Shown piece after piece: positions 6,261 to 47,335 of a DNA stretch of 64,000 bases. The DNA is from Treponemataceae bacterium (GTDB lineage: Bacteria > Spirochaetota > Spirochaetia > Treponematales > Rectinemataceae): the NCBI GenBank assembly GCA_963677895.2, contig CAXXGJ010000006.1, positions 128,001-192,000 of the forward strand, read 5' to 3'. Within the stretch, counting starts at the first letter, position 1. The number at the start of each line of letters is the position of its first letter. The position numbers and the translations under genes are program-made. Below the pieces are notes generated by a model, which saw only the letters and a list, made by a program, of their open reading frames with translations, ran no database searches and was not told where the DNA came from.

Positions 6261-7355
6261 TCAGCGGCTGTAGCTCATTATCTCGCGCTCGAAGGTTTCC
6301 CGGTTCAGCGACCTGAGGAAGGCCAGGGAGAATTCCTTGGCGGCGGCGTAGTCCCTGTAGTCCATGATGCTCGAGTTGGTATGGATGTAGCGCGAGGGAA
6401 CGCCCACGGTCATCGAGGGGCAGCCGGATCTCGCCATGTGGATTTCGCCCGAGTCGGTGCCGCCCAGGGCCATGAAGTACTGGAAGGGTATGTTCTTCTT
6501 TTCGGCGAGTCTGGTTCCGTACATGAAAAGGCCTCGGTGCGTGATGGCCGTCCTGTCGATGTAGCGCAGCAGGACCCCCTTGCCCTGCTGGCCCAGTTCC
6601 TCCGGGTCGCCCATGTTGTCGTTGGCGGCCGAGGATTCGAAGACGATGGAGACTTCGGGTTCGACGGTGAAGGCGGCCGTCCTGGCGCCGCGAAGGCCTG
6701 ACTCTTCCTGGACGGTGGCGCCGATGTAGAGGTCGACGTCGAGCTCCTCGTTGGCTACTTCCTCGAGGACGTCGAGGGCGAGGGCGCAGCCGAAACGGTT
6801 GTCCCAGGCTTTGGACAGGAGCTTCTTTCCGCCGAAGAGGGGAACGAAGGGGCCGTCCACGATAATCATGTCGCCGGGCCTGATTCCGGCGGCCAGCACG
6901 TCTTCGCGGGATTCGGCGCCGATATCGATGAGCATCTGGTCGATGGAGAGAAGGCGCTTGGAGCTGTCCTCGGGAAGAAGGTGGGGCGGTATCGAAGCCA
7001 CGGCGCCCTGGTAGCCCTGGCCGGTGATGCTCGAGTAGACCGTGACGCGTTGAGCCATGATCACGTGCTCCCAGGTCCTGCCTATCGGGAAGAACTTGAT
7101 GAGCCCTTTGGGCGTTATCTGTTTGACGATGAAGCCGACTTCGTCCATGTGGCCGTTCATCATGACGCGCGGGGCGTTCGGTTTCTTCGAACGTTTGACC
7201 GCGAAGACGGAACCCAGGCCGTCGAAGACGAGTTCGGAGGCGTATTTGGACAGTTCTTTCTTCATGTACTCGCGGACGCGCATTTCGTGGGCAGAGACTC
7301 CGGGAATCTGGGTCAGCGTCCTGAATCTTTCCATTTGTCGTTCGGTAGGTATCAT
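6261..7355 (-). CDS. M42 family aminopeptidase
   Basis: HMDEVGF, KAWDNRFG, VQEESGLRGA, GGTD, RYIHT; start set at MIPTERQ behind a GGAG RBS. Confidence 0.9.
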   Translation of the reverse strand: MIPTERQMERFRTLTQIPGVSAHEMRVREYMKKELSKYASELVFDGLGSVFAVKRSKKPNAPRVMMNGHMDEVGFIVKQITPKGLIKFFPIGRTWEHVIMAQRVTVYSSITGQGYQGAVASIPPHLLPEDSSKRLLSIDQMLIDIGAESREDVLAAGIRPGDMIIVDGPFVPLFGGKKLLSKAWDNRFGCALALDVLEEVANEELDVDLYIGATVQEESGLRGARTAAFTVEPEVSIVFESSAANDNMGDPEELGQQGKGVLLRYIDRTAITHRGLFMYGTRLAEKKNIPFQYFMALGGTDSGEIHMARSGCPSMTVGVPSRYIHTNSSIMDYRDYAAAKEFSLAFLRSLNRETFEREIMSYSR

Positions 7356-7369
7356 TCTATTCTCCTGAT

Positions 7370-8353
7370 TTAGACGAATTGTTCCGCGAGGCGGCAGGCG
7401 ACGAAGCGCCCTGGGGCCACTTCCCTCAAAGCGGGATCGGCGACGGAGCATTCGGGCTGGGCGTGAATGCATCGCGGCGCGAAGCGGCAGCCCGGCTTGG
7501 GGTTGATGGGAGAGCTTACTTCGCTCTTGAGGATGATTCTTTCCTTCCTCGCGTTCAGCTTGGGTACGGGGATGGCCGACAGGAGGGCCCTGCCGTAGGG
7601 ATGAATGGGTTTGGCGAAGAGTTCCTCGGTGGGGCCTTTTTCGACGATCTGGCCCATGTACATTATGACGATGTCGTCGGAGATGTGCTTGACGACGGAG
7701 AGGTCGTGGGTGATGAAAAGGTAGGTAAGCCCGAGTTTGTCCTGGAGGTCCATGAGGAGGTTCAGGATCTGCGCCTGGATCGACACGTCGAGGGCCGAAA
7801 CCGGTTCGTCGCAGACGATGAACTCCGGGTCCAGGGCCAGGGCGCGCGCTATGCCGATGCGCTGGCGGCGTCCTCCGTCCAGCTCGTGGGGGTACGAATC
7901 GTAGAGGCGATCGGCGAGCCCGACGGTGGCCATGAGTTTTCTCACCCTCTCCTCGTATTCCTGGTTGCCCGACACTTTCTTGTGGATTTTCAGGGGCTCG
8001 CCGATGATGGTGGCCACGGTGTGGCGCGGGTTGATCGAGGAATAGGGGTCCTGGAAGATCATCTGCATCCGCGTGCGCAGGGTTTTCATCTCGCGGTCGT
8101 TGGCCTTGGTCACTTCCGAGCCGTCGTAGACGATGGATCCGGCCGTGGCTTCGTGGAGGCGGACGAGGAGCCTGCCTGTCGTGGACTTGCCGCAGCCCGA
8201 TTCGCCCACCATGCCCAGGGTCTTGCCTTTCTGGATGTCGAAGGAAACGTCGTCGACGGCGTGGAGGCTGCCGTGGGCGGACTGGAAGTATTTTTTGAGG
8301 TTGTTAACCCTCAATATGGGCGCCACTGCTGTGGCGAGGGTTTTGGCGCTCAT
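7370..8353 (-). CDS. oppF: Oligopeptide ABC transporter ATP-binding protein (OppF/DppF-like)
   Basis: GESGCGKST, QMIFQDP, DEPVSALD, GCRFAPRC; start MSAKTL overlaps the oppD stop. Confidence 0.9.
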   Translation of the reverse strand: MSAKTLATAVAPILRVNNLKKYFQSAHGSLHAVDDVSFDIQKGKTLGMVGESGCGKSTTGRLLVRLHEATAGSIVYDGSEVTKANDREMKTLRTRMQMIFQDPYSSINPRHTVATIIGEPLKIHKKVSGNQEYEERVRKLMATVGLADRLYDSYPHELDGGRRQRIGIARALALDPEFIVCDEPVSALDVSIQAQILNLLMDLQDKLGLTYLFITHDLSVVKHISDDIVIMYMGQIVEKGPTEELFAKPIHPYGRALLSAIPVPKLNARKERIILKSEVSSPINPKPGCRFAPRCIHAQPECSVADPALREVAPGRFVACRLAEQFV

Positions 8354-9342
8354 GCCTGGCTCCTTGCGCCGGTTTCGGCGGTATATAGGTGGCACTTGAC
8401 GCGATGGCCGCCGAGATCGATGTCCACGGGGTGCTTTTTGGCGCAGATGTCCATCGCGTGGGGACAGCGCGGGTTGAAGAAGCAGCCTTCGGGCAGGGCG
8501 GTCGGGTCGGGCATCAGGCCGGGGATGGGCTTGAGCCTGTCGGTGATCTCGGAGAGGTCGGGCAGGGAACCGAAGAGTCCCTTGGTGTAGGGATGCAGGG
8601 GGCCGCCGAAAACCTGATCGATCGAGCCGTATTCGACGATTTCGCCCGCGTACATGGTCGCCACTTCGTCGCAATTCTCGGCCACGAGGCCGAGGGAGTG
8701 GGTGATGAAGAGCACCGAGGTGCCGTTGTCGCGGATGAGGGTGCGCATGAGGTCGAGGACCTGGGCCTGGATGGTGACGTCCAGGGCCGTCGTGGGTTCG
8801 TCGGCGAGGAGCAGTTTGGGGTTGCAGGCGAGGGCGAGGGCGATGACGACGCGCTGCTTCATGCCGCCCGAGAACTGGTGGGGGTATTCCTTGGCGCGGT
8901 CGGCCGGTATGCCCACCGTTTCCAGCATCTTTTCGGCTTTTTTCCAGCTTTCCTCGCCGCTCAGGCCTTCGTGCTTCATCACCGTCTCGGCGATCTGCTC
9001 GCCCACGGTGAGGACGGGGTTGAGGGCCGTCATGGGATCCTGGAAGATCATGGCCACGTCCTTGCCGCGCATGTCGCGCAGGTCTTGCTTGGACATGCCG
9101 AGGACATCCTTGCCGGAGAAGCTGATGGAGCCTTTCATGATCTTGCCCTGGGGAGAGCGGATCATGTTGAGGATGGAGAGGGCCAGGGTGGTCTTGCCGG
9201 CGCCGGTCTCGCCGACGAGGCCGAGCACTTTGCCCGCTTTGAGGTCGAGGGTGAGGCCGTTTATGGCCTTCGTCACTTTGCGATACGAGAAGTACTGGAC
9301 TTCCAGATCGCGTATTTCAAGTATTTTTTCCATGCGGTTCAC
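8350..9342 (-). CDS. oppD: Oligopeptide ABC transporter ATP-binding protein (OppD/DppD-like)
   Basis: GETGAGKT, FSGGMKQR, DEPTTALD, GCFFNPRC. Confidence 0.9.
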   Translation of the reverse strand: MNRMEKILEIRDLEVQYFSYRKVTKAINGLTLDLKAGKVLGLVGETGAGKTTLALSILNMIRSPQGKIMKGSISFSGKDVLGMSKQDLRDMRGKDVAMIFQDPMTALNPVLTVGEQIAETVMKHEGLSGEESWKKAEKMLETVGIPADRAKEYPHQFSGGMKQRVVIALALACNPKLLLADEPTTALDVTIQAQVLDLMRTLIRDNGTSVLFITHSLGLVAENCDEVATMYAGEIVEYGSIDQVFGGPLHPYTKGLFGSLPDLSEITDRLKPIPGLMPDPTALPEGCFFNPRCPHAMDICAKKHPVDIDLGGHRVKCHLYTAETGARSQA

Positions 9343-10290
9343 CTATCGTTTCAGTTTGGGGTCGAGGGCGTCGCGCAGCCCGTCGCCGATGAGGTTGTAG
9401 GCCAGTACGGTGAGCAGGATCGTGAGCCCGGGGGCGAAGAGGAGGTGCGGCGCGTACTGGATGAATTCCCTCGCCTCGGAGAGCATGTTTCCCCACTCTG
9501 GTTTCGGGGGGAGGATGCCCAGGCCGAGGAAGGAGAGGGAGGCCGCCCAGTTGATCGCCGATCCGACGTTCAGCGTGGACTGGACGATGATGGGCGAGGT
9601 TATGTTGGGCATGATGTGCTTGAGCACGATCCGCAAGTCGCCGGCGCCTATGCAGCGGGCCGCCTCGACGAATTCCTGGTCCTTCACCTGGATGATGGAG
9701 GCGCGCACGATTCGTATGTAGCCCGGTATCATCGAGGTGGAGATGGCGACGATGAGGTTGAAGAAGCTGTTCCCCAGGGCGGCGACGATGGCTATGGCCA
9801 GCAGTATCGTCGGTATGGAGAGGAGGATGTCGGTGGCGCGCATGATGAAGGTGTCGAAGAGGCCGCCCTTGTAGCCGGCTATCGCCCCGAGTATGCCGCC
9901 CACCATGAAGGAGATGGCCACGGTGGCGAAGCCGATGATCATGGAAACCCTGGCGCCGTGGACGAGGCGGCCGAGGATGTCCCTGCCGTAGTTGTCCGAT
10001 CCGAGGATGAAGGTGTGTTCTATGTCCTTTTCGTGGTAATAGACGACGCCGCTCTCGCCCGGTTTGAGGAGGGCGTTTTCCAGGGAGTTGGAGGTGACGA
10101 AATCGTATTCGTAGAGGAGGTCGGCGAATATCGCCACCAGGGCGAAGACGATCACGAGGGCCAGGCTCAGCACGGCGAGCTTGTTGCGCGCCAGCTGCCG
10201 CCAGAACTGGGAAAAGTTCCTGCCCGTCCGGCGCATGAAGCGCGCGAATTTGGAGGTGTTGGTAATGGTGTTGGTCATGGTCTCGCTCAT
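9343..10290 (-). CDS. oppC: Oligopeptide ABC transporter permease (OppC/DppC-like)
   Basis: LGSDNYGRD, EFVEAARCIGA, LSFLGLG, PEWG, GDGLRDALDPK. Confidence 0.9.
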   Translation of the reverse strand: MSETMTNTITNTSKFARFMRRTGRNFSQFWRQLARNKLAVLSLALVIVFALVAIFADLLYEYDFVTSNSLENALLKPGESGVVYYHEKDIEHTFILGSDNYGRDILGRLVHGARVSMIIGFATVAISFMVGGILGAIAGYKGGLFDTFIMRATDILLSIPTILLAIAIVAALGNSFFNLIVAISTSMIPGYIRIVRASIIQVKDQEFVEAARCIGAGDLRIVLKHIMPNITSPIIVQSTLNVGSAINWAASLSFLGLGILPPKPEWGNMLSEAREFIQYAPHLLFAPGLTILLTVLAYNLIGDGLRDALDPKLKR

Positions 10291-11284
10291 GCCCGGCTCC
10301 TTGCTATGGCCGGTTTGGCCTTTTTCTTTCCAAAGGTCGTCTTGATGCGCGGGTCGATGAATCCATAGAGCACGTCGACCAGGAGGTTGATGACCGTGAA
10401 GGTGAGCGCGATGAAGCAGACCGAACCGAGGATCTGGGGCGTGTCCTTCTGGTAGATGGCGTCCACCATTATGGAGCCCAGGCCCGGATAGGAGAATATT
10501 TTCTCCGTGAGGACGGCGCCGCCGAGCAGCTGTCCGAACTGGAGTCCGGCCACGGTGACGACGGGGATGAGGGCGTTGCGGAGCGCGTGCTTGAAGATGA
10601 CGACCTTCTCGTCCATTCCCTTTACCCTGGCCGTCCTGATGTAATCCTGCTCCATGACTTCGAGCATGGAGGACCTCGTCATGCGCATGATGATGGCCAT
10701 GGAATACATGCTCAGCGTGATGGTCGGCAGGATGAGGGAGACGAAATCGCCCGGATTGGACATGGCGGGGAAGATCCTGAGGTTGTTGGCGAAGGTGTAG
10801 ATGAGGACCATGGCCGCCCAGAACACGGGCATCGAGGCCCCGAGGAGGGCGAAGACGGTGAAGATCATGTCGATCGCCGAGTATGGTCTCGTGGCCGAGA
10901 GTATGCCGATGGGCACGCCTATGCAGACCGCCAGCAGGAGGGCGCCGGCCGCGAGTATAAGTGTATTGGGAAACGAGCTCAGGATGAGCTCGAAGACGTT
11001 CCTGTTCGAGATGTAGGACCGGCCGAGGTCGCCGAAGAGGAGTCCTTTATAGCCGAAAATGGGATGGCTGTAGCCAAAGAGGAAGCGCACGTACTGGATC
11101 AGGAATGGCTTGTCGAGCCCATGTCCGCCTTCATCTGCGTGTAGGCGGCGGGTGAGGCGTTGGGTCCCAGCATCATCTGGGCGGGGTCCGAGGGCGTGAC
11201 GTACAGAAGCGCGAAGACTATCAGCGTCACGCCGAAAAGTACGGGTACCAGCATAAGGATACGCCGTAATAGGTATCTGCTCAT
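10287..11284 (-). pseudogene. oppB: Oligopeptide ABC permease OppB/DppB, split by a 1-nt deletion at ~11118-11120 (real lesion or sequencing error)
   Basis: ORFs 11099..11284 (MSRYLLRRIL...) and 10287..11090 join as ...KADMG-LDKPFLIQYVRFL... if one base is added after ATG GG, giving about 332 aa. Confidence 0.85.
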
Positions 11285-11416
11285 ATTTGGAAAGTCCGAT
11301 CGTAAAGCCCGGAAGGGTTCCCCGGGCGGGGTTTCCTTCCGGACGGAAGGCCGCGAGGCGGCAAGCGTTTCGTCGTCATGACGTCGCGCTCGCGGCCGGG
11401 AGGCCTTCCTTCAGCG

Positions 11417-19392: not shown

Positions 19393-19463
19393 GCGACCGT
19401 CGTATACCGGTATTACCCGAGCTTCCCAAGCTCGAGAAGCGGGTTCGACTCCCGTCGGTCGCT
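19393..19463 (+). tRNA. tRNA-Gly (anticodon CCC); CCA not encoded
   Basis: Acceptor stem GCGACCG/CGGTCGC, anticodon arm CGAGC-TTCCCAA-GCTCG, T-loop GGTTCGACTCC, discriminator T. Confidence 0.93.
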
Positions 19464-39205: not shown

Positions 39206-39252
39206 CGATTCAATACCGTGGTAACTCGCTTCATCAACTAGAGTATTAACGC

Positions 39253-39281
39253 TTGACCGCATTGTAATATTAAATTACAAT
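39253..39281 (+). promoter_or_regulatory. higBA promoter with an overlapping palindromic operator
   Basis: TTGACC-N17-TACAAT; ATTGTAAT-ATTAA-ATTACAAT at 39261-39281. Confidence 0.7.
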
Positions 39282-39300
39282 ATAACTCATGAGGTAATAT

Positions 39301-39615
39301 GTGAAGGTTGAGTTTAAAAATTCTCAACTCGAAAAACTCTATTCAACCGGACAATCGAAGAAGTACCCAGTAGGCTCGGCTATCGCGACAAAATTCGTGG
39401 CCGTCGTAGCCAGATTGAAAGCCGCTCAAGACATCCACGATCTTTGGAGACTGCCTTCGCTAAACTTCGAACGACTTCATGGTAACCCGAACAGGTATTC
39501 GGCGAGAGTAACGATCAAGTACCGAGTCGAGATGGAAATAGACTGGGAAAACCAGGAGAAAACCATTGGACTTATCGGTATCGTCGAGCTCTCGAGCCAT
39601 TATGGAGGAAGGTGA
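39301..39615 (+). CDS. higB: HigB/RelE-like toxin
   Basis: 104 aa, LNFERLHG...YSARVTIKYR; precedes an HTH antitoxin. Confidence 0.8.
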   Translation: MKVEFKNSQLEKLYSTGQSKKYPVGSAIATKFVAVVARLKAAQDIHDLWRLPSLNFERLHGNPNRYSARVTIKYRVEMEIDWENQEKTIGLIGIVELSSHYGGR

Positions 39616-40721
39616 CTATGGGCGAACTCAAGCCATTCATCAATATCGGACCCGGCATCGTTATAAAGGATGAACTGGAAGCGCTAGGTTGGTCGCAGGA
39701 TGATCTGGCACGCATCATGGGCATGTCACTGAAAGCCGTCAATGAAATCCTTAACGACAAGGTGGCGATAACAGTCGAAACAGCGCGGCTTCTGGGAAAA
39801 GCATTCGGGACATCGGCGGAAATATGGATAAACCTGGATACGGCATATCGACTTCGCCTCCGAGAAGATACCGAGCGCGAACGGGAAGCCGAACGTTATG
39901 CGGCAGTCATGAAGTACATGCCGGTCAGGGAGATGGTCAAGAAAGGATGGCTAGAAACCTACAACTCGTCATCGGAGCTTTTGGAAAAAGCCAAGAATTT
40001 CTGGAATGTTTCCGAGCCTGATTTCTCATTCTTGGGCAAGGCTAAGGAGCCCTGTTTCAGGCGTTCCGACGCTTATGAATTCTACGAGAAATATTACGCC
40101 CTCACCTGGACCCAAAAAGCAAAGGATACTGCTTCAAGTATACATTTGCCGGAATGGGACAGAACCGCGGCCAAAAAGATTGGAGCAAAGCTCGGCAATT
40201 TCTCTCGGCTCGAGAATGGCACCTCGACATTTATACAGGACTTAGAAGTGGCAGGCATAGGGTTTTTCGTACTGAGCCACCTGCAGAAAACGTATCTGGA
40301 CGGAGCGGCGATTTTCGTCGGCGCGAATCCATTCATCGTCTATACTGGCCGCTTCGATCGTTGTGACAATTTCTGGTTTACCGTAGCCCACGAGTTAGCC
40401 CACCTAGTTCTTGGTCACGTGAAGAAGGACGGACAGGAAATCCTTGATGACCTGAAACAGGAAGCCGGAAACGATCAGGAAAAAGCAGCAGATAAACTGG
40501 CTGAAACCTATCTCCACACTGTGGAAATTCTGGAATTTTGCGCGCCTTTTAAAAAGTATCTCTCGCGCGAGAGGATAGAGCGCTGCGCTGAAACAGTCGG
40601 AGTAAGCCCGGGTATTGTGGTTGGAACCTTACAGTATGCGGGTATCCTGCCGTACAAGAACCTAAATAACTATAAAAGACCAATACTCACGGCACTTCCT
40701 GCATCATGCATCAAGGGATAA
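39612..40721 (+). CDS. higA: HigA-type HTH antitoxin fused to an ImmA/IrrE-like metallopeptidase domain
   Basis: PGIVIKDELEALGWSQDDLA...WINL HTH; DNFWFTVAHELAH (HExxH). Confidence 0.85.
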   Translation: MTMGELKPFINIGPGIVIKDELEALGWSQDDLARIMGMSLKAVNEILNDKVAITVETARLLGKAFGTSAEIWINLDTAYRLRLREDTEREREAERYAAVMKYMPVREMVKKGWLETYNSSSELLEKAKNFWNVSEPDFSFLGKAKEPCFRRSDAYEFYEKYYALTWTQKAKDTASSIHLPEWDRTAAKKIGAKLGNFSRLENGTSTFIQDLEVAGIGFFVLSHLQKTYLDGAAIFVGANPFIVYTGRFDRCDNFWFTVAHELAHLVLGHVKKDGQEILDDLKQEAGNDQEKAADKLAETYLHTVEILEFCAPFKKYLSRERIERCAETVGVSPGIVVGTLQYAGILPYKNLNNYKRPILTALPASCIKG

Positions 40722-40723
40722 AC

Positions 40724-41554
40724 CTAGACATCATCAAAAAGCTCTTTTTGGTATTCATATGGTATCGGTAATACACCAACAATAACCCAAGGGTTAGGAG
40801 CTAAAAAATGAAACTGTTGAGTCGTGCCAAGATAAAAATGGAGATCTTTCTGTACAAATGTGTCGAAGTATTTTGCCCGAACTTTTTCCAAGACTTGTCG
40901 ATCATCTATCCCTGGTTCCTTGAAACAATTCCAATACAACGCCCCAATTTCCCAATCGAGTATTTGAAGCTGACAACTACGCCCTCGATCATCTTCAAAT
41001 CTGTAAGAAAAGCTATATGGCAACTTTTTTATTAGCTTGAAGGTTCTTCGCCATTCATTATCGTCAAATAAATCAAGCTGATTATAAAAACCCCTCATTT
41101 CAGCAACTTTAGATTCATCCCACTCTCGTTCTTCACTTTCTGAGATAAAATCTATAACTCTCGTAGGTTTGAATATCGCCAACGAAGTTATGTTCCGCTT
41201 TGCATCAATGATAAGAGCATCCATATTTGTATATACTTTTGCAGTTTTTAAGAGAATTTCTCGGCGTGCATGCCAATTATTCTCAGTACCAATTCTACCT
41301 ACCGGTTTTAATTCTTCAGGATTTATCGGACTATATGATTCTGGTCTTGGATCTTTGGTTCTCCGGTTTGTCTGGCATTCAATCCAATCATATTTGCTAT
41401 ATTGTTCAGCTTCATCCAGCCTTCGAAACGGCACTGGGTATAACCTTACCCAAGAGCCATCCTCCCTGATACCAGCCGTGCATACGGTTTCGCCATACTT
41501 CATCGATAATGTCGGATACGTTTTAACGGTGATTAGGATACGTTCCTTTGACAT
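40724..41554 (-). CDS. Conserved-looking hypothetical protein, partner of the DUF488 gene
   Basis: 276 aa, ITVKTYP...ETVCTAG...WVRLYP, DWEIGALY, FYLGT; GGAG RBS. Confidence 0.7.
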   Translation of the reverse strand: MSKERILITVKTYPTLSMKYGETVCTAGIREDGSWVRLYPVPFRRLDEAEQYSKYDWIECQTNRRTKDPRPESYSPINPEELKPVGRIGTENNWHARREILLKTAKVYTNMDALIIDAKRNITSLAIFKPTRVIDFISESEEREWDESKVAEMRGFYNQLDLFDDNEWRRTFKLIKKLPYSFSYRFEDDRGRSCQLQILDWEIGALYWNCFKEPGIDDRQVLEKVRAKYFDTFVQKDLHFYLGTTQQFHFLAPNPWVIVGVLPIPYEYQKELFDDV

Positions 41555-41566
41555 ACACCAGCTCCG

Positions 41567-42463
41567 TTACAAATTTATTATTTTTATTTTCTCCTCATGC
41601 GTACTTTCAATTGCTTCAGCCACACAGTGCCTATGGCATTGTTCGGGCAAGTGTTCATAGCACGTCAAGGCAACACTCTCTCCCTCCCTAATCCATATAC
41701 GAATCAATTCTAGTGATTCGCTTTTATTTGGAAGAATATTTTTTTTATATTCTTCGAAAAGATGATCATACTCTGCTTGTGTATCAAGATTTTTTCGTTG
41801 ATCGGACGCAATTCCCAAATCAGGCAAATGCTCATACCTGATTCCAACTCCTGCACAAGCCTTAAGCAAGGTATTCTTAGAAAATCCATATTTCCGGCTT
41901 ATTGGATTGCGACGTACATCACAAAGTAGGCTTACGCCACTTCGAATTAAAATATTCAGATACGCTTCCAGGGACAATCCTTCATACCCAATCGTCAGTA
42001 AGCCAGGACACTTTCTTGGTTTCGCTTCTTCGATTCGCTTCAATGCCTTGATATCTGAATGAAGGACCCTCTCCGCTATTTCACTTTTAATCCCGTAGTA
42101 TGGATATTTTCGATACGTTTCTGCAACTAATTCATCACCTCTCAAGCTTGAGTATTTTTGCATAAAACTGCTGATTTTTGTTTTGATATCGGGAGATACC
42201 ATTGTCGATGCCTCAAATCCCGATTGCGTCAATCGCCAATAATGTTCGTCAGGTGACAGCATTCCAGATTCGACCAAATGTCTGCGATCGGCATAGGATG
42301 TGAAGGAAAAGGCACCATACCGATATGGAATAAACTCGTAAAATGCGTTGACATCACACTCCTGGCAACTGAGAAAAAGTAGTTTCTGGAAGTCAAGATT
42401 TCCGACAGGACCATTAGCTGATGCCAACAGTGCCAGCAAGTATTTTTGTCGATGAAATATCAT
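41567..42463 (-). CDS. Winged-helix (Panacea/SocA-like motif) plus DUF488 domain protein
   Basis: N-terminal FQKLLFL...FIPYRYGAFS; C-terminal TIGYEG, DVRRNPISRKYGFSK, LTCYEH...CHR. Confidence 0.8.
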   Translation of the reverse strand: MIFHRQKYLLALLASANGPVGNLDFQKLLFLSCQECDVNAFYEFIPYRYGAFSFTSYADRRHLVESGMLSPDEHYWRLTQSGFEASTMVSPDIKTKISSFMQKYSSLRGDELVAETYRKYPYYGIKSEIAERVLHSDIKALKRIEEAKPRKCPGLLTIGYEGLSLEAYLNILIRSGVSLLCDVRRNPISRKYGFSKNTLLKACAGVGIRYEHLPDLGIASDQRKNLDTQAEYDHLFEEYKKNILPNKSESLELIRIWIREGESVALTCYEHLPEQCHRHCVAEAIESTHEEKIKIINL

Positions 42464-42511
42464 AGTGTCCTATTTACATTATACGAGAATATTTCAGCTT
42501 TACAAGTTCTC

Positions 42512-42595
42512 TTACTTCAACGCCGTATAGATTTCTTAAAGACTCTCGATACTAACTTCCAGTTTTTCGATGATCTCACCAGCGAGAATGTCAGG
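42512..42595 (-). pseudogene. Probable 3' remnant of a type I restriction-modification methyltransferase (hsdM)
   Basis: Translation PDILAGEIIEKLEVSIESL*EIYTALK* resembles HsdM C-termini (PDVLAxEIxExLE); internal stop. Confidence 0.45.
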
Positions 42596-42628
42596 GTAAA
42601 GTAAAGGGTCACCATCTCTGGGAGCTCG

Positions 42629-42676
42629 GCATAAAGCATGGCAGAAGCGCGCAACGGGTTGAAGCGGTTGTTCGTA
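42629..42676 (-). other. Truncated attC half-site
   Basis: Minus strand TACGAAC-AACC-GCTTCAACC...GCCATGCTTTATGC parallels the first half of the attC at 43276-43400 and lies just after the DUF1801 stop. Confidence 0.55.
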
Positions 42677-42691
42677 AAATATTATTTCTTT

Positions 42692-43075
42692 CTATATTCG
42701 TCTCAATTCTCCATTATTGATTCTTATGTTTTTGTAATCCCATTGTATGCTTAGTGCTTCATCAAGCCACTTATTAAGTTCGTTTTCGTTTGTTTCTTCA
42801 ATTTTTGTATATACCCTTTCCGCAGCTTTGAATTTCCCGATTGGACTTAGCCCCTTGTTGCTGAAGGATTGTCCACTCCAAAAAAGTAGTGCAATTCCAT
42901 TTTTCTTTTTTGAATATCCGACTATCGGATTTTCGTCTATAAACCATACAGGAGCACCATGGTACATTTTTGATGTAGCGTTCTTCAGTTTTAGATTAAT
43001 CAAACCGCAGAGTTTTATGCAAATGTCTTTCAGGGTGCCTTCAAATTGATTGTTGTATTCTTCAAATTGATCCAT
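42692..43075 (-). CDS. DUF1801 (YdhG-like) protein, probable gene cassette ORF
   Basis: MYHGAPVWF..NPIVGYS...LLFWSGQSF...GKFKAA...WDYKNI; GGAGG RBS before MDQF. Confidence 0.8.
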   Translation of the reverse strand: MDQFEEYNNQFEGTLKDICIKLCGLINLKLKNATSKMYHGAPVWFIDENPIVGYSKKKNGIALLFWSGQSFSNKGLSPIGKFKAAERVYTKIEETNENELNKWLDEALSIQWDYKNIRINNGELRRI

Positions 43076-43275
43076 AATCCTCCGATATCTTGCTTGATCG
43101 AAGCAACATCTTTTATATGCTGGACGTATTTGCGCGCGTAGCATCAGGCTAATAAGTATGATGTCCTTCTTCGTAAAATACTTTTGAATAATCTATTTTC
43201 CATTAATATATTGTAGTTAAAACAAATATAACTCTTTTATACAACATAGCTATTTCAGCTCCATATAGTTGATCC

Positions 43276-43400
43276 GACTAACATAAGCTTAACCTTTAAA
43301 GCCTGGCCCGAGCTACTGCGAGGGATTGGCGTGGTTTGTGCATGTGATTTCTGCACAAACCATGCCAAAAGGCTTTATAAGGTTGAAGCATTTGTTAGGA
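43276..43400 (-). mobile_element. Integron attC recombination site (125 bp)
   Basis: Minus strand: R'' TCCTAAC, L'' GCTTCAACC, central hairpin, L' GGTTAAGC, R' GTTAGTC. L'' has one extra base relative to L'. It begins 7 nt after the RT stop. Confidence 0.8.
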
Positions 43401-43407
43401 TTCTTTT

Positions 43408-44730
43408 TTAAGACATTGCACTCATATCTTGTTCAATATCAAGAATACTCTTGTGTATTAATTTTTTAAATTTGTATTGCGCGTCATCTATATTTTTAAA
43501 CTGAATACCGATATAACTTAGTAGTTTTATTATCATATCGTCAGAATATTCATCATAATTGGGTATATATTTTGATTTTATGCCTTTTTTAGTTATTTCT
43601 TTATATACTCTAGATATCTTTTTAATTTTAAGCTCTTCACATTTATACCTTTTCATCTGTCTATTTATAAAGTGATCTATTGAAAATAATTCTTGAATAT
43701 TTTCTGTTTGTGAAAAAAAGAACATCCATCCATACTTTTTGTTTTCCCAAATAAATCCGGTAATTCTCAAGTTTACTCTAAACTCTAGTTTTTTTGGATT
43801 TTTTTTTGCCTGATGCTTATATATTGTTAGAAGACGTATAATAGATTCTTTGAATTTCCTTTTGCTCTTTAATCGAATTGATACTTTTCTATTTGAAAAA
43901 CAATATCCAAGGTAATCAAACTTATCATGAATTGGTGCAACCTTATACTTATCCCCATCATTAAAGACTAACTTGTATTTTTCAATTTCTTTGAATAATT
44001 TATTTTCTAAATACTTCCTATTATCAAAATTACATAAAATTAAAATATCATCAACGTACCTATAGTACTTAATATTTCTTATCTTTGAGATCTCTTTATC
44101 AAATGGAGTTAGATATACATTTGCAAGAATATTTGCTATAGATAAACCTTGCGGAACTCCTTTATCCCTGACAAAAATATCATCAGCTTTGTAAGCAGAA
44201 TTTGTATTTTTAATAGACGCCATAAGCAATTTTATAACTTCAACTTTTCTAATTTTTGTTTTAACTTGTTTTAATAGTATCTCGTGATCTATGCTTGGGT
44301 AATAATTTTTAACATCTAGCTTAATAAAGCAATTATACTGTAAGTCTTTAATACTTTTTGATATATCTGCAATTTGAGTATGCAGCCTTCTTTTTACTAA
44401 TTGTTCGGTAAATGCACTTTCAAGTATTTCGAATAATGCTCTTAAGACTAATCGATCTCTCAAAGTTGGCTTTTCAACAATTCTTGGACAACTATTGTAG
44501 CCTTTTGAAAGTAATTTTGCTTTATAGACAGTAAAACTATACGTTCCTGCCTTACACTTAGTAATAATTAACTCTGTGTGCAATGCAAAATCACGTCGAA
44601 ACTGATGGCTTGTCATTCCATCAATTCCTGAAGTTGCATTTAATCCAATTTTATCATCAAATATTGATAATAAAGCTTTATTTGTAAATATTTTATTAAA
44701 TTTTTCTGCAGAATTTAACTTAATAGCCAT
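43408..44730 (-). CDS. Reverse transcriptase, UG/Abi defence-associated type (UG17/DRT10-like), about 440 aa
   Basis: GIDG, PTLRDRLV, KLDVKNYYPSIDH, GVPQGLSIANILANVYL, YYRYVDDILI, FDYLGY; start MAIKLN overlaps the SLATT 3' end; no maturase/HNH domain evident. Confidence 0.9.
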   Translation of the reverse strand: MAIKLNSAEKFNKIFTNKALLSIFDDKIGLNATSGIDGMTSHQFRRDFALHTELIITKCKAGTYSFTVYKAKLLSKGYNSCPRIVEKPTLRDRLVLRALFEILESAFTEQLVKRRLHTQIADISKSIKDLQYNCFIKLDVKNYYPSIDHEILLKQVKTKIRKVEVIKLLMASIKNTNSAYKADDIFVRDKGVPQGLSIANILANVYLTPFDKEISKIRNIKYYRYVDDILILCNFDNRKYLENKLFKEIEKYKLVFNDGDKYKVAPIHDKFDYLGYCFSNRKVSIRLKSKRKFKESIIRLLTIYKHQAKKNPKKLEFRVNLRITGFIWENKKYGWMFFFSQTENIQELFSIDHFINRQMKRYKCEELKIKKISRVYKEITKKGIKSKYIPNYDEYSDDMIIKLLSYIGIQFKNIDDAQYKFKKLIHKSILDIEQDMSAMS

Positions 44731-45290
44731 ATAAATATTCCTATCGGGATAACTAAGTAAATCAGAATTATTATTAGCCAAACTACTATATTTCGTATAA
44801 TAAAATAGCTCCATTCAAAAAATGATGGATTTGGAACAGTATTATTCTCAGAAGGATTTGTGGTTTTTCTAAGAAAACACTGAATAATTACTTTTTTATA
44901 ATCATATTCTGAGTGATTTTCAGTTTCCCTAAGCAATTGATCATATTGATCTTCAATATTCGCTGTACTATCATTTCTGTTTTCTGCAGAATAAGCATCA
45001 CTTATTAGTTTCCCGATACTAATATATTGTTCTTTTACTTGTCGGCATTCTTGTTTAAAATCTTTCTGCGATAGTAAAAGCGATACAACTAATACAATAA
45101 TCGAACCGAGCACTGAAAAGGTGTTTCTAATAGAGGAATCAACATTAGAAGGTATGATAGATACAGCAATAAGTAAAATTGAATACCACGGAATCAAGTA
45201 AGTACAGATTTTATAATTGAAATTCAATCTTTTTTCCATATTAATACGTACTTTTCTTGTAATCCACATTCTATCACTTAGCTTATTCAT
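44715..45290 (-). CDS. SLATT-domain membrane effector (SLATT_5-like)
   Basis: MWITRKVRINMEKRL, two TM helices, helical region, Y..LL..TENH...DY, C-terminal TM; GGAG RBS. Confidence 0.8.
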   Translation of the reverse strand: MNKLSDRMWITRKVRINMEKRLNFNYKICTYLIPWYSILLIAVSIIPSNVDSSIRNTFSVLGSIIVLVVSLLLSQKDFKQECRQVKEQYISIGKLISDAYSAENRNDSTANIEDQYDQLLRETENHSEYDYKKVIIQCFLRKTTNPSENNTVPNPSFFEWSYFIIRNIVVWLIIILIYLVIPIGIFIWLLS

Positions 45291-45307
45291 AACTACTCCA
45301 AAAAAAA

Positions 45308-45432
45308 GGGGGAATTCTTATAGGAACACCTTAACAACGCTTCTTGCAAAGCTTATCTCTCGATAAAAGCATTACTGCTTTTTTGAATAGAACACCTACA
45401 ATGTAAGCTGTGTAAACACAAAGAATCCCCCC
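45308..45432 (-). ncRNA. Putative RT-associated structured ncRNA
   Basis: Terminal 12-bp stem GGGGGGAUUCUU/AAGAAUUCCCCC (one G-U) encloses hairpins, two with GNRA loops (GUAA, GAGA), plus duplicated AGCUU...AGGUGUUC motifs; directly upstream of SLATT-RT. Confidence 0.7.
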
Positions 45433-45446
45433 AATAATCACAAAGT

Positions 45447-45480
45447 AATCCTAACAATTATTATACCGTTTATCATAAAC
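45447..45480 (-). other. attI-like site / cassette 5' boundary
   Basis: Minus strand GTTTATGATAAAC-GGTATAAT-AATT-GTTAGGATT. GTTAGGATT is the exact reverse complement of AATCCTAAC at the start of the downstream attC. Confidence 0.6.
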
Positions 45481-45700
45481 TACTATTTAGGTAATCTATT
45501 CGCCAGTAACATATGACACCATCATTAGATGTTATATCTCTTTGAGTGATTCCGCAACATTTTTCGTGATTCTTATAATCCTACGTAAGTAATGAAGAGT
45601 AATGCAACTAACGCGATGGGCGCCTTACCATGCATTAACAAAGCCAAGGGTCAATTTACAGCAACTGCCCGCAATCGACAAACTCTTGATATCGTTTTTG

Positions 45701-46444
45701 CTATTTTTTTAAAATACTTGACGCATCGACAATGACTAGCATTTTCTCTTTACACTCATCCCAAAGCCGCGGCTCAGTAACTAGCTCGCACATAAAATGC
45801 GCGACATTAGCCATGGCGGTGGCTTTAGGCTTGAAAAGACTGCTCACAAGGCTCTCGTGTACCTTGTACTCGCTCACGTCGCCCTCTGTGAGGCTATCCG
45901 GGCGCACGACAACCCACTGGATTGCGGGATCGACGAGGCCGATCCTGTCGCGAAGGTAGTCGGCCGCATTCTGATTATCCGAGGCGGGGGGCACGAGGCC
46001 GCGCATGACCCAGAGAAGGGCCTTTTCCAAAACCCCCCGCCGCGCATCGGCAGCGCCTGGCACGTTGACCGAAACACTGCTCATGAGCACGAACTTGACC
46101 GCTTTTTCGGGCTTGAGAGCCTGAACAGCCGCGCAAGCCCTGGCGACGACCTGCGCCACAAGATCCCTGGGCTGACCGAAAATGCCTTTCATTGTCGTGG
46201 TTGTGTGGCCGAGGCAGGAAATGATCGCGTCGCATCCGGCGACGTACCGGCTAAGCTCGTCGTCGCCTAACGACAATAAATCGGCCTCGATTACCTCAAG
46301 CCCCTCCTTGCCGGCAACTCCTTCGGGCAGCCTGGCGCTTGAACGGACGATCGCGCGGACGGTGACTCCGCGTTCCAGAAGCTGCCTGAGGACGCGGCCG
46401 CCGGTGCGCCCGGTGCCACCCAATAAAAGCACGGTGATGTTCAC
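45701..46444 (-). CDS. NAD(P)H-binding atypical SDR (NmrA/BVR-B-like) protein
   Basis: LGGTGRTG, VRAIVRS, WVVVRP. Confidence 0.85.
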   Translation of the reverse strand: MNITVLLLGGTGRTGGRVLRQLLERGVTVRAIVRSSARLPEGVAGKEGLEVIEADLLSLGDDELSRYVAGCDAIISCLGHTTTTMKGIFGQPRDLVAQVVARACAAVQALKPEKAVKFVLMSSVSVNVPGAADARRGVLEKALLWVMRGLVPPASDNQNAADYLRDRIGLVDPAIQWVVVRPDSLTEGDVSEYKVHESLVSSLFKPKATAMANVAHFMCELVTEPRLWDECKEKMLVIVDASSILKK

Positions 46445-46671
46445 GATTCTTCCTCCGAATAGTGGAACACCTCGTTCAGCGGCACGCCGAACACGTTGGC
46501 GATTCGGAAGGCCATCTCCAGCGAAGGAGAATAACGGCCCTGCTCTATCGCGATTATTGTCTGCCTGGTCACACGCACGCGGTCCGCGAGCTCGGCCTGG
46601 GTCATCTCGCCCGCGGCGAACCTGAGCGTCCGAATGCTGTTGGTCACCCTCATCGACGAGTCCATGATCAA
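46441..46671 (-). CDS. XRE family HTH transcriptional regulator
   Basis: MTQAELADRVRVTRQTIIAIEQGRYSPSLEMAFRIA. Confidence 0.92.
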   Translation of the reverse strand: MIMDSSMRVTNSIRTLRFAAGEMTQAELADRVRVTRQTIIAIEQGRYSPSLEMAFRIANVFGVPLNEVFHYSEEES

Positions 46672-47120
46672 TAACCCCTGCGGTAGATGACGATCTTGAC
46701 CACGGAGGACACGAGCCCCCCTATCATCATGGTCAAAAAGAGGGCGTTCGCGATCCAGAACTGGTCAGCCCTCACCATGGCGAGGGCTATGACGCCGAGA
46801 ATGCCCACCGACGCGACGTAGTAGCCGACAAGCTCGCCGCGGCGGTTGATGTGGTCATCCCTCTCGTCTTTGCGGCCGATATCGTCCGCCGAGCCCCTGT
46901 GTCGTATCTCGGCAGCGACGGCGGAGCCGATCGACATGAGTATCATGCCAACGATCGTCGCGACGATAATGGCTCCGATGGCCATGAGCATTGGTTTCTG
47001 ATAGGCGATATGGGCCAGCGGCACGCTTCCCATCTGATTGAGAACAAAGGAGCAATAAATTCCCGTGACCAGCACGGTCACAATGGTTGAAACCCAGGTG
47101 GCTCTCTCTTCGTACGACAT
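46668..47120 (-). CDS. Four-TM membrane protein with a DERD motif, coupled to the XRE regulator
   Basis: MSYEERATW..., KDERDDHI; GGAGG RBS; ATGA overlap. Confidence 0.75.
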   Translation of the reverse strand: MSYEERATWVSTIVTVLVTGIYCSFVLNQMGSVPLAHIAYQKPMLMAIGAIIVATIVGMILMSIGSAVAAEIRHRGSADDIGRKDERDDHINRRGELVGYYVASVGILGVIALAMVRADQFWIANALFLTMMIGGLVSSVVKIVIYRRGY

Positions 47121-47131
47121 CGAAACCTCCA

Positions 47132-47199
47132 ACATGTCAAGAATGTTTGACATGTGCTAATGTAAAGCTATCTATACATTATGTCAAGGATGTTATACA
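47132..47199. promoter_or_regulatory. Three tandem imperfect palindromes (ATGTCAA-N6-TTGACAT type), putative XRE operators
   Basis: acatgtcaagaatgtttgacatgt, aatgtaaagctatctatacatt, atgtcaaggatgttataca. Confidence 0.65.
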
Positions 47200-47307
47200 A
47201 AAAAATATTATTCAGTGAGCAGGGTGCGTGACCAAACGGGAGCCGATTCCCGATTGGTCATGACTTTTCGGGAATCCGTTTCATTTTAGTCCTTTGTAAA
47301 GCGCAGA

Positions 47308-47335
47308 AGCCGCCCGGAATGACGCCCGGGCGGCT
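47308..47335 (-). terminator. Hairpin downstream of alkaline phosphatase
   Basis: agccgcccgg-N8-ccgggcggct. Confidence 0.55.

Follow-up and report, generated by a model that had tools for sequence, protein, structure and literature searches.

An intact-looking DRT10 defence system packaged as one integron gene cassette in a Treponemataceae genome

A reverse transcriptase (RT) gene that ends a few nucleotides short of an integron attC site raises the question of what has been captured at such a locus, a single gene or an entire immune system with its own structured RNA, and of how it came to be where it is. The locus in point lies in a 64,000-nucleotide stretch of a Treponemataceae genome (GenBank assembly GCA_963677895.2, contig CAXXGJ010000006.1, positions 128,001 to 192,000 of the forward strand), which is referred to here, at its full length, as the window. 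A preliminary description, made from the sequence alone, proposed that non-coding RNA (ncRNA), SLATT gene and RT gene move together as a single 2173-bp cassette (45454-43282), and copies with the same ends elsewhere bear this out: the unit is confirmed as one integron cassette with an intact-looking DRT10 system. Its parts, with the slash in G/TT marking the crossover, are as follows.

43282 to 45454, minus strand: integron gene cassette holding DRT10, 2173 bp; a homologous locus (L052) and contigs of the sequencing runs X4, X5 and X9 share its ends
43276 to 43400, minus strand: complete attC, 125 bp (R'', L'' with an extra base, inner hairpin, L', R')
43408 to 44730, minus strand: UG17/DRT10 reverse transcriptase, 440 aa, YVDD, Ser440 (PADLOC RT_UG17 4e-131, 436 bits)
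44715 to 45290, minus strand: SLATT_5 two-membrane-helix effector, 191 aa (Pfam PF18160 1e-31; NF033631 over cut-off; PADLOC RTasSLATT 1e-42)
45308 to 45432, minus strand: DRT10 ncRNA core, made up of SL1 (45432-45421 with 45319-45308), SL2, SL3, Loop A, SL4, SL5, SL6 and Loop B
45325 to 45336, minus strand: predicted A-B-A' template (4+4+4 nt), with a 2-nt linker before it (rule from PMC12632851, section 8)
45452 to 45465, minus strand: orphan attI-like simple site (YAAT, 4 nt, G/TT), crossover between 45455 and 45454

Cassette ends and the attC family

Read along the minus strand, the unit runs from the crossover G/TT (45455/45454) through 164 nt of non-coding DNA, the SLATT gene, the RT gene and 7 nt to the attC at 43400-43276. 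The R'' box of this attC ends at 43394, L'' occupies 43388-43381, L' occupies 43294-43288, and R' starts with the G at 43282. L'' and L' pair at 7/7 positions with the fourth base of L'' looped out. The inner hairpin (43367-43327), put at 16 bp when it was first noticed, is present with 15/16 positions paired and one G-T wobble (bottom strand). The bottom strand as a whole folds at -37.8 kcal/mol (z -8.9), and 0/200 shuffles were equally stable. The coordinates first given are all correct; the RT stop ends at 43408, 7 nt ahead of the 125-bp attC with its R'', L'', L' and R' boxes and extra L'' base. The RT start originally placed at 44814 was not kept; 44730 is the most likely start and yields 440 aa, as in database protein P0001.

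The complementarity of the cassette start to its own R'' over 9 nt, on which the preliminary description relied, is also found as described and proves to be the norm of a family. The same attC element ends cassettes along C39, a 46-kb contig of the same assembly that holds 48 plus-strand copies, and 36/44 scored C39 cassettes begin with a match of 8-9 nt to their own R''. In the control, in which the cassette start was set against the R'' of the preceding attC, a match of at least 8 nt occurred in 4/42. Because C39 cassettes match their own R'' and not the preceding one, the 9-nt match in the window is a signature of the family. The window attC was matched by a profile derived from the array of this genome and, separately, by a test of attC geometry, and the suspicion that its hairpin might be a free, dispersed repeat falls away, since it belongs to this family of cassette-terminal elements. 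The family is present in 10/61 genomes searched, the assembly itself (G000) included. IntI scored over the cut-off in 5/5 relatives tested, four of them picked for their attC matches and both congeneric genomes among them; full-length relatives of a same-family IntI are mostly from Spirochaetota, and the cluster of one window protein includes a member named Spirochaetaceae, in keeping with a spirochaete host. One congeneric genome, G001, has three intI-attI platforms (L023, L028, L041), each intI pointing towards its array, and more than 100 attC matches together with satellite arrays.

A length of 2173 bp is long for a cassette; it is not unique. The median in C39 is 841 bp (43 measured), and cassettes of more than 2 kb occur in G001, with one of more than 4 kb in G019. 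The initial characterization as unusually complex cargo is tempered by the cassettes of at least 2 kb in relatives' arrays. The G019 example (L048, at about 7090-11340), an unusually large cassette of ~4.2 kb, matches its own R'' over 9 nt.

Copies of the cassette in other surroundings were found by comparing the window with four of 21 listed sequencing runs (X2, X4, X5 and X9, from four studies) and with homologous loci. X4 and X5 contain one contig each (2104 and 2110 nt), extending from 43374 or 43369 to 45456 with 11-12 differences; the flanks of the window cassette are uncovered in both runs, save for small patches in X4, and past the crossover the X5 contig has what looks like an L' box and its spacer, from a different attC. 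The X9 contig (1467 nt) matches the window at 45327-45457 only, the remainder being unlike it. In L052 (contig MTLC01000120.1), a 2154-bp homologue lies mid-array between two attCs; it is 69% identical over the cassette and 66% identical in the RT, and it has the same first 13 bases, the same R'' and the same terminal bases as the window cassette. Other than in the attC, the similarity of L052 to the window ends at the cassette limits. L052 and the X4, X5 and X9 contigs all break at the predicted ends, and these independent copies in other contexts support the reading that the cassette moves with those ends. The X2 contigs cross both cassette junctions with no differences; X2 may be the source sample, and its evidence speaks only against misassembly.

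The exact-excision joint of the cassette is not among the joints listed for the runs compared, and an X2 joint between 43396 and 45460 (depth 3.5, side 23) differs from the product that excision should give. Among 400 other genomes from the order the RT turned up in none, and RT_UG17 occurs in 1/400 genomes of a sample of the phylum. A single-protein scan of genome contigs gave 80 candidates, of which 0 were confirmed, a scan of genome contigs with the ncRNA pattern gave 0 matches, and plasmid matches are at most 36% identical.

DRT10 as cargo, in the window and beyond

The cargo is DRT10, an already described anti-phage system built from three parts, a template RNA, a membrane protein and a telomerase-like RT. 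The next best PADLOC family matches the RT at 8e-36, the RT start overlaps the SLATT stop, and the RT ends in a serine (Ser440) that is nearly invariant in 26 sequences and is the candidate priming residue; in DRT10 the C-terminal serine serves as primer (PMC12632851, in the part drawn on here). The clade of the window RT is ~35-42% identical to most other UG17 matches.

The ncRNA, known here from two sequences, appears when modelled to fit the published DRT10 geometry. Loop A has 12 nt (45393-45382) and Loop B 19 nt (45338-45320); the fold has a z of -2.9, and the six-stem arrangement is 3.3 kcal/mol less stable than the minimum-free-energy structure. All 34 pairs hold in the two sequences, those of the window and L052, and the same two sequences give no covariation signal (258/500 shuffles score as high). 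By analogy with the published template rule, the predicted cDNA product is tandem CCTTAACA, a repeat of 8 nt. The L052 template conserves A and A' and differs at one base of B, for a predicted repeat of CCTCAACA. The CCTTAACA repeat is absent from the part of the Tang supplement (PMC12632851) that was covered. Rfam has no match in the cassette region, and no intron there; the sole Rfam match in the window is a tRNA gene at 19393-19463. If the system works as characterised DRT10 systems do, two RT molecules would bind the pseudo-symmetric ncRNA, and one of them would prime on its C-terminal serine and copy Loop B repeatedly, generating protein-linked tandem CCTTAACA; the infected cell would be arrested or killed by the effector, the SLATT membrane protein.

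How often DRT10 travels in this way was gauged from 188 loci (160 and the first 28 of 49 viral UG17-like loci), in 158 of which both ends are present. Tests of repeat and geometry were adopted for this purpose because attC heuristics with an energy filter are insensitive: they recovered only L052 (1/153, 1/179) and missed L061 and L154. Six of the 158 loci have attC geometry at the RT stop; three (L052, L061 and L154) combine it with an upstream GTT that is complementary over at least 8 nt, a combination that null draws produced 0/4620 times. The array around L061 has attCs of a different type, and the attC of L154 is short, at 62 bp. L135, with an 11-nt match and an atypical 8-nt L'-R' spacer, is a probable fourth DRT10 cassette. 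The RTs of all four are RT_UG17. L100 was rejected as a cassette (8-nt match without attC geometry), as was L177, whose repeated hairpins are not attC-like by eye, and the 28 viral UG17-like loci tested yielded no cassette. The arrangement within L135 (48-898) has its own features: the SLATT start seems to lie ~70 nt past the crossover, there is a gap before the RT, and the ncRNA may lie between the genes. L341 (G442) has DRT10 in RT-SLATT order with attC-like sequences, judged by eye, on either side and some distance off; it may be in an array.

In a quick tree built from 100 RTs (those of 89 loci, plus 11 proteins), the window and L052 share a clade with support of 100, together with three proteins of unknown context; in the same unrooted tree, L061, L154 and L135 fall in separate clades. 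We infer from these RT sequences that DRT10 was probably captured into cassettes on three to four separate occasions. Of the DRT10 loci sampled, about 2% are cassettes, and most DRT10 systems are not packaged in that way. DRT10 does travel by integron, but the route is a minor one, so that the earlier suggestion of a path for spreading DRT systems stands in kind and shrinks in extent (three firm cases and one probable among 158-181 testable loci).

The insertion site

The cassette lies in an island whose other features are these.

39206 to 47308, no strand assigned: variable island, 8 kb; congeneric G001 has an unrelated ~1.3 kb here
42670 to 43281, minus strand: second cassette, with a DUF1801-like gene (43075-42692, 127 aa; Pfam match below curated cut-off)
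42630 to 42676, minus strand: attC of the second cassette, degenerate and cut down to R'' and L''; weak C39 attC matches, lower end approximate
42512 to 42597, minus strand: 3' remnant of a type I restriction-modification (R-M) hsdM gene, matching the end of an N6_Mtase/HsdM_N gene of G019 (498 aa) at 78%
40724 to 42463, minus strand: candidate defence pair PDC-M19A/B, a DUF488 protein with its partner, lying outside the cassettes (PADLOC 3e-104, 7e-110)
39301 to 40721, plus strand: HigB-like toxin and HTH/peptidase-M78 partner (PD-Lambda-2_B-like)

At 42512-42676 the second attC stops behind its L'' and gives way to the final 86 bp of hsdM, which suggests a deletion in which the remainder of the array and the bulk of the type I R-M operon may have been lost. 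No intI adjoins the cassette and none is present in the assembly, which is 92.8% complete and also lacks the genes next to intI in G001 and G002. Since the assembly has this degree of completeness and C39 begins mid-cassette, a gap at IntI is likely, loss of the gene being possible. The site accordingly lacks the intI next to attI that marks a complete integron, and because no integrase is adjacent or assembled, the window copy is taken as an outlying insertion, outside the main array.

The site itself has a GTT core with the spacing of an attI, its original right-hand side having been lost on insertion. That spacing is the one found at the canonical attI beside intI in G001 (three sites), G019 and G031. 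A strict motif for such sites, defined after these sites had been inspected, has 9 matches in G000 and G001 together, 8 of them cassette starts (reversed control, 1; looser version of the motif, 4/13). The four matches in G001 are the three attI sites and one cassette start in a satellite array; four of the five in G000 are at first-cassette junctions. Elsewhere in G000, C28:14320, C4:7977 and C13:13337 belong to alleles of one locus, probably strain variants in the bin, that are 95-96% identical and diverge at the attI-like site, where their first cassettes encode a 296-aa DUF4145 protein, a 1086-aa NACHT-like protein and an unknown 384-aa protein, respectively. A second apparent allele pair of G000 (C2:326083-328245 and C5:6026-7632) also has different first cassettes, for a 639-aa AAA ATPase (AriA/Old-like) and an unknown 477-aa protein. 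At C30:17695-19201 (L348) of the same assembly, an orphan attI-like site is followed by a 274-bp cassette without a long ORF and then by a cassette for a UG9-like RT, split over two ORFs; it is a second DRT-type RT, in a satellite array.

These observations are assembled into the following account. The IntI recombinase would excise and insert the 2173-bp unit through its attC, as comparison of the copies implies. The window copy was probably inserted in trans, by an IntI belonging to the large chromosomal integron of the host, and the target would have been an outlying attI-like site in a defence island, ahead of an older DUF1801 cassette; insertion there places the DRT10 cassette in the first, best-expressed position. 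Taken whole, as a genuine cassette with a complete DRT10 system, moved by IntI through attC, inserted here in trans and functioning in the manner expected of DRT10, this account is in our estimation highly probable.

One extension of it is considerably more speculative. The L-box half of the window site is a perfect TATAAT (45465-45460), a sequence that occurs in several orphan sites (C6, C28, C30, C4 and L046), and in 0/5 attI with such spacing. The notion is that in this spirochaete lineage -10 boxes mimic the attI L box, so that scattered promoters would serve as reusable docks for the integrase, large defence systems would be switched on at several sites at once, and DRT10 would have been fitted into cassettes at least three to four times independently; as a package we regard it as an unlikely proposal. 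A promoter scan found 16 sites where 18.1 are expected, none of them at the crossover, with no -35 partner for the TATAAT and no sigma-70 call, and 15/19 sites of the form TATAAT-N4-GTT have no attC downstream. Were the notion correct, cassettes from a silent chromosomal library would be dropped exactly at a transcription start, and defence systems, RNA-templated ones that begin with an ncRNA included, would not be competing for a single first position.

The strongest rival to insertion in trans grants that the cassette is real and holds that the site is the leftover attI of a former small integron whose intI has been lost (a CALIN), or that both cassettes arrived with the island on another mobile element. 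G001 lacks the island, which has a decayed look (the second attC is truncated and only a remnant of hsdM is left), the site is spaced like an attI, and IntI is missing from the assembly, all of which would fit. The gene upstream of the crossover, on the other hand, is NAD(P)H-binding, with no IntI-like match there; past its core of 13 nt the site is, by eye, unlike the three canonical attI regions of G001; and three nearly identical alleles with three different first cassettes demand ongoing insertion. We regard this rival as improbable. A little less probable still is that the cassette, though real, is a stored and unexpressed copy, silent or non-functional in its host. The lack of a promoter call at the crossover, a GC content of 29% in a genome of 56% and a decaying neighbourhood are what such a copy might present; yet neither ORF is disrupted, the RT retains YVDD and Ser440, 34/34 ncRNA pairs hold in both homologues, and the cassette occupies the first position, where a TATAAT precedes the crossover by 4 nt. 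An RT next to an attC site is a typical feature of group IIC-attC introns, and the present RT does adjoin an attC and match TIGR04416 weakly, but the reading of it as such an intron or another retroelement, like that of the hairpin as a dispersed repeat unrelated to cassette ends, is refuted to near certainty by a TIGR04416 score of 128 bits against a cut-off of 300 (set beside 436 bits for RT_UG17), the absence of any Rfam intron match, the SLATT partner, copies that break at the cassette ends in four other contexts, and the recurrence of the element at cassette ends throughout C39.

Relation to known systems

A DRT10 system carried whole as a cassette has several wider implications. Its recombination ends delimit a minimal DRT10 unit naturally, with CCTTAACA repeats (CCTCAACA for L052) as a testable product. 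The probable captures in separate RT lineages bear on the open question of cassette origin, because an ncRNA-first operon of two genes was taken whole each time. Orphan attI-like sites with cassette turnover provide a natural case of insertion outside the integron.

In the parts of the literature compared here (which also include 10.64898/2026.03.17.712381, PMC10924106 and PMC13434031), the system shares with characterised DRT10/UG17 (Eco1-3DRT10; PMC12632851, 10.64898/2026.06.29.735271, 10.64898/2026.04.29.721553) the order ncRNA-SLATT_5-RT, overlapping genes, YVDD and an A-B-A' template. Its C-terminal serine (S456 in Eco3), 12-nt Loop A, 19-nt Loop B and 2-nt linker resemble Eco3, and its six-stem ncRNA layout resembles Eco1 (10.64898/2026.06.29.735271, in the part compared). 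It differs from characterised DRT10 in being packaged as an attC cassette and in its spirochaete host.

As to the integron side, the arrangement resembles the SALIN/CALIN elements and attG insertions of Loot et al. (10.1101/2022.09.11.507474), as far as that text was drawn on, in having a cassette far from intI, a chromosomal G/TT and possibly a resident promoter. According to the same portion of Loot et al., attG differs from attI in its GWT core and CRGM motif, whereas sites of the window lineage keep attI spacing; unlike attG, the orphan sites here often have TATAAT, and one of them is refilled by different cassettes in different alleles. The Treponema chromosomal integrons described in the part of PMC3607928 consulted are alike in that intI points towards attI in G001 and G019 and in their long attCs (115-132 bp); that account counts one attI per integron, and G001 has three intI-attI platforms with satellite arrays.

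Anti-phage cassettes have been described in mobile integrons (Kieffer et al., in the part used here) and in sedentary chromosomal integrons by Darracq et al. (10.1101/2024.07.02.601686), where the passages compared stress small, streamlined systems. Like those cassettes, the present one has defence cargo with at most two protein components and would be best expressed in first position; unlike them, as they appear in those passages, it is a full-length system of 2.2 kb with an essential structured RNA. DRT, retron, RT and SLATT go unnamed in the main text of Darracq et al. as covered; Table S4 (783 systems) lies outside this comparison and could list DRT. In literature pairing integrons with DRT10, UG17 or defence RTs, DRT10 was not found described as a cassette, and the DRT10 papers matched use the word integron 0 times. 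DRT10 is known and defence cassettes are known; their combination seems to be undescribed. Against the published picture of small, streamlined and protein-only cargo, an integron cassette is able to hold an RNA-templated immune system at full length, its ncRNA included.
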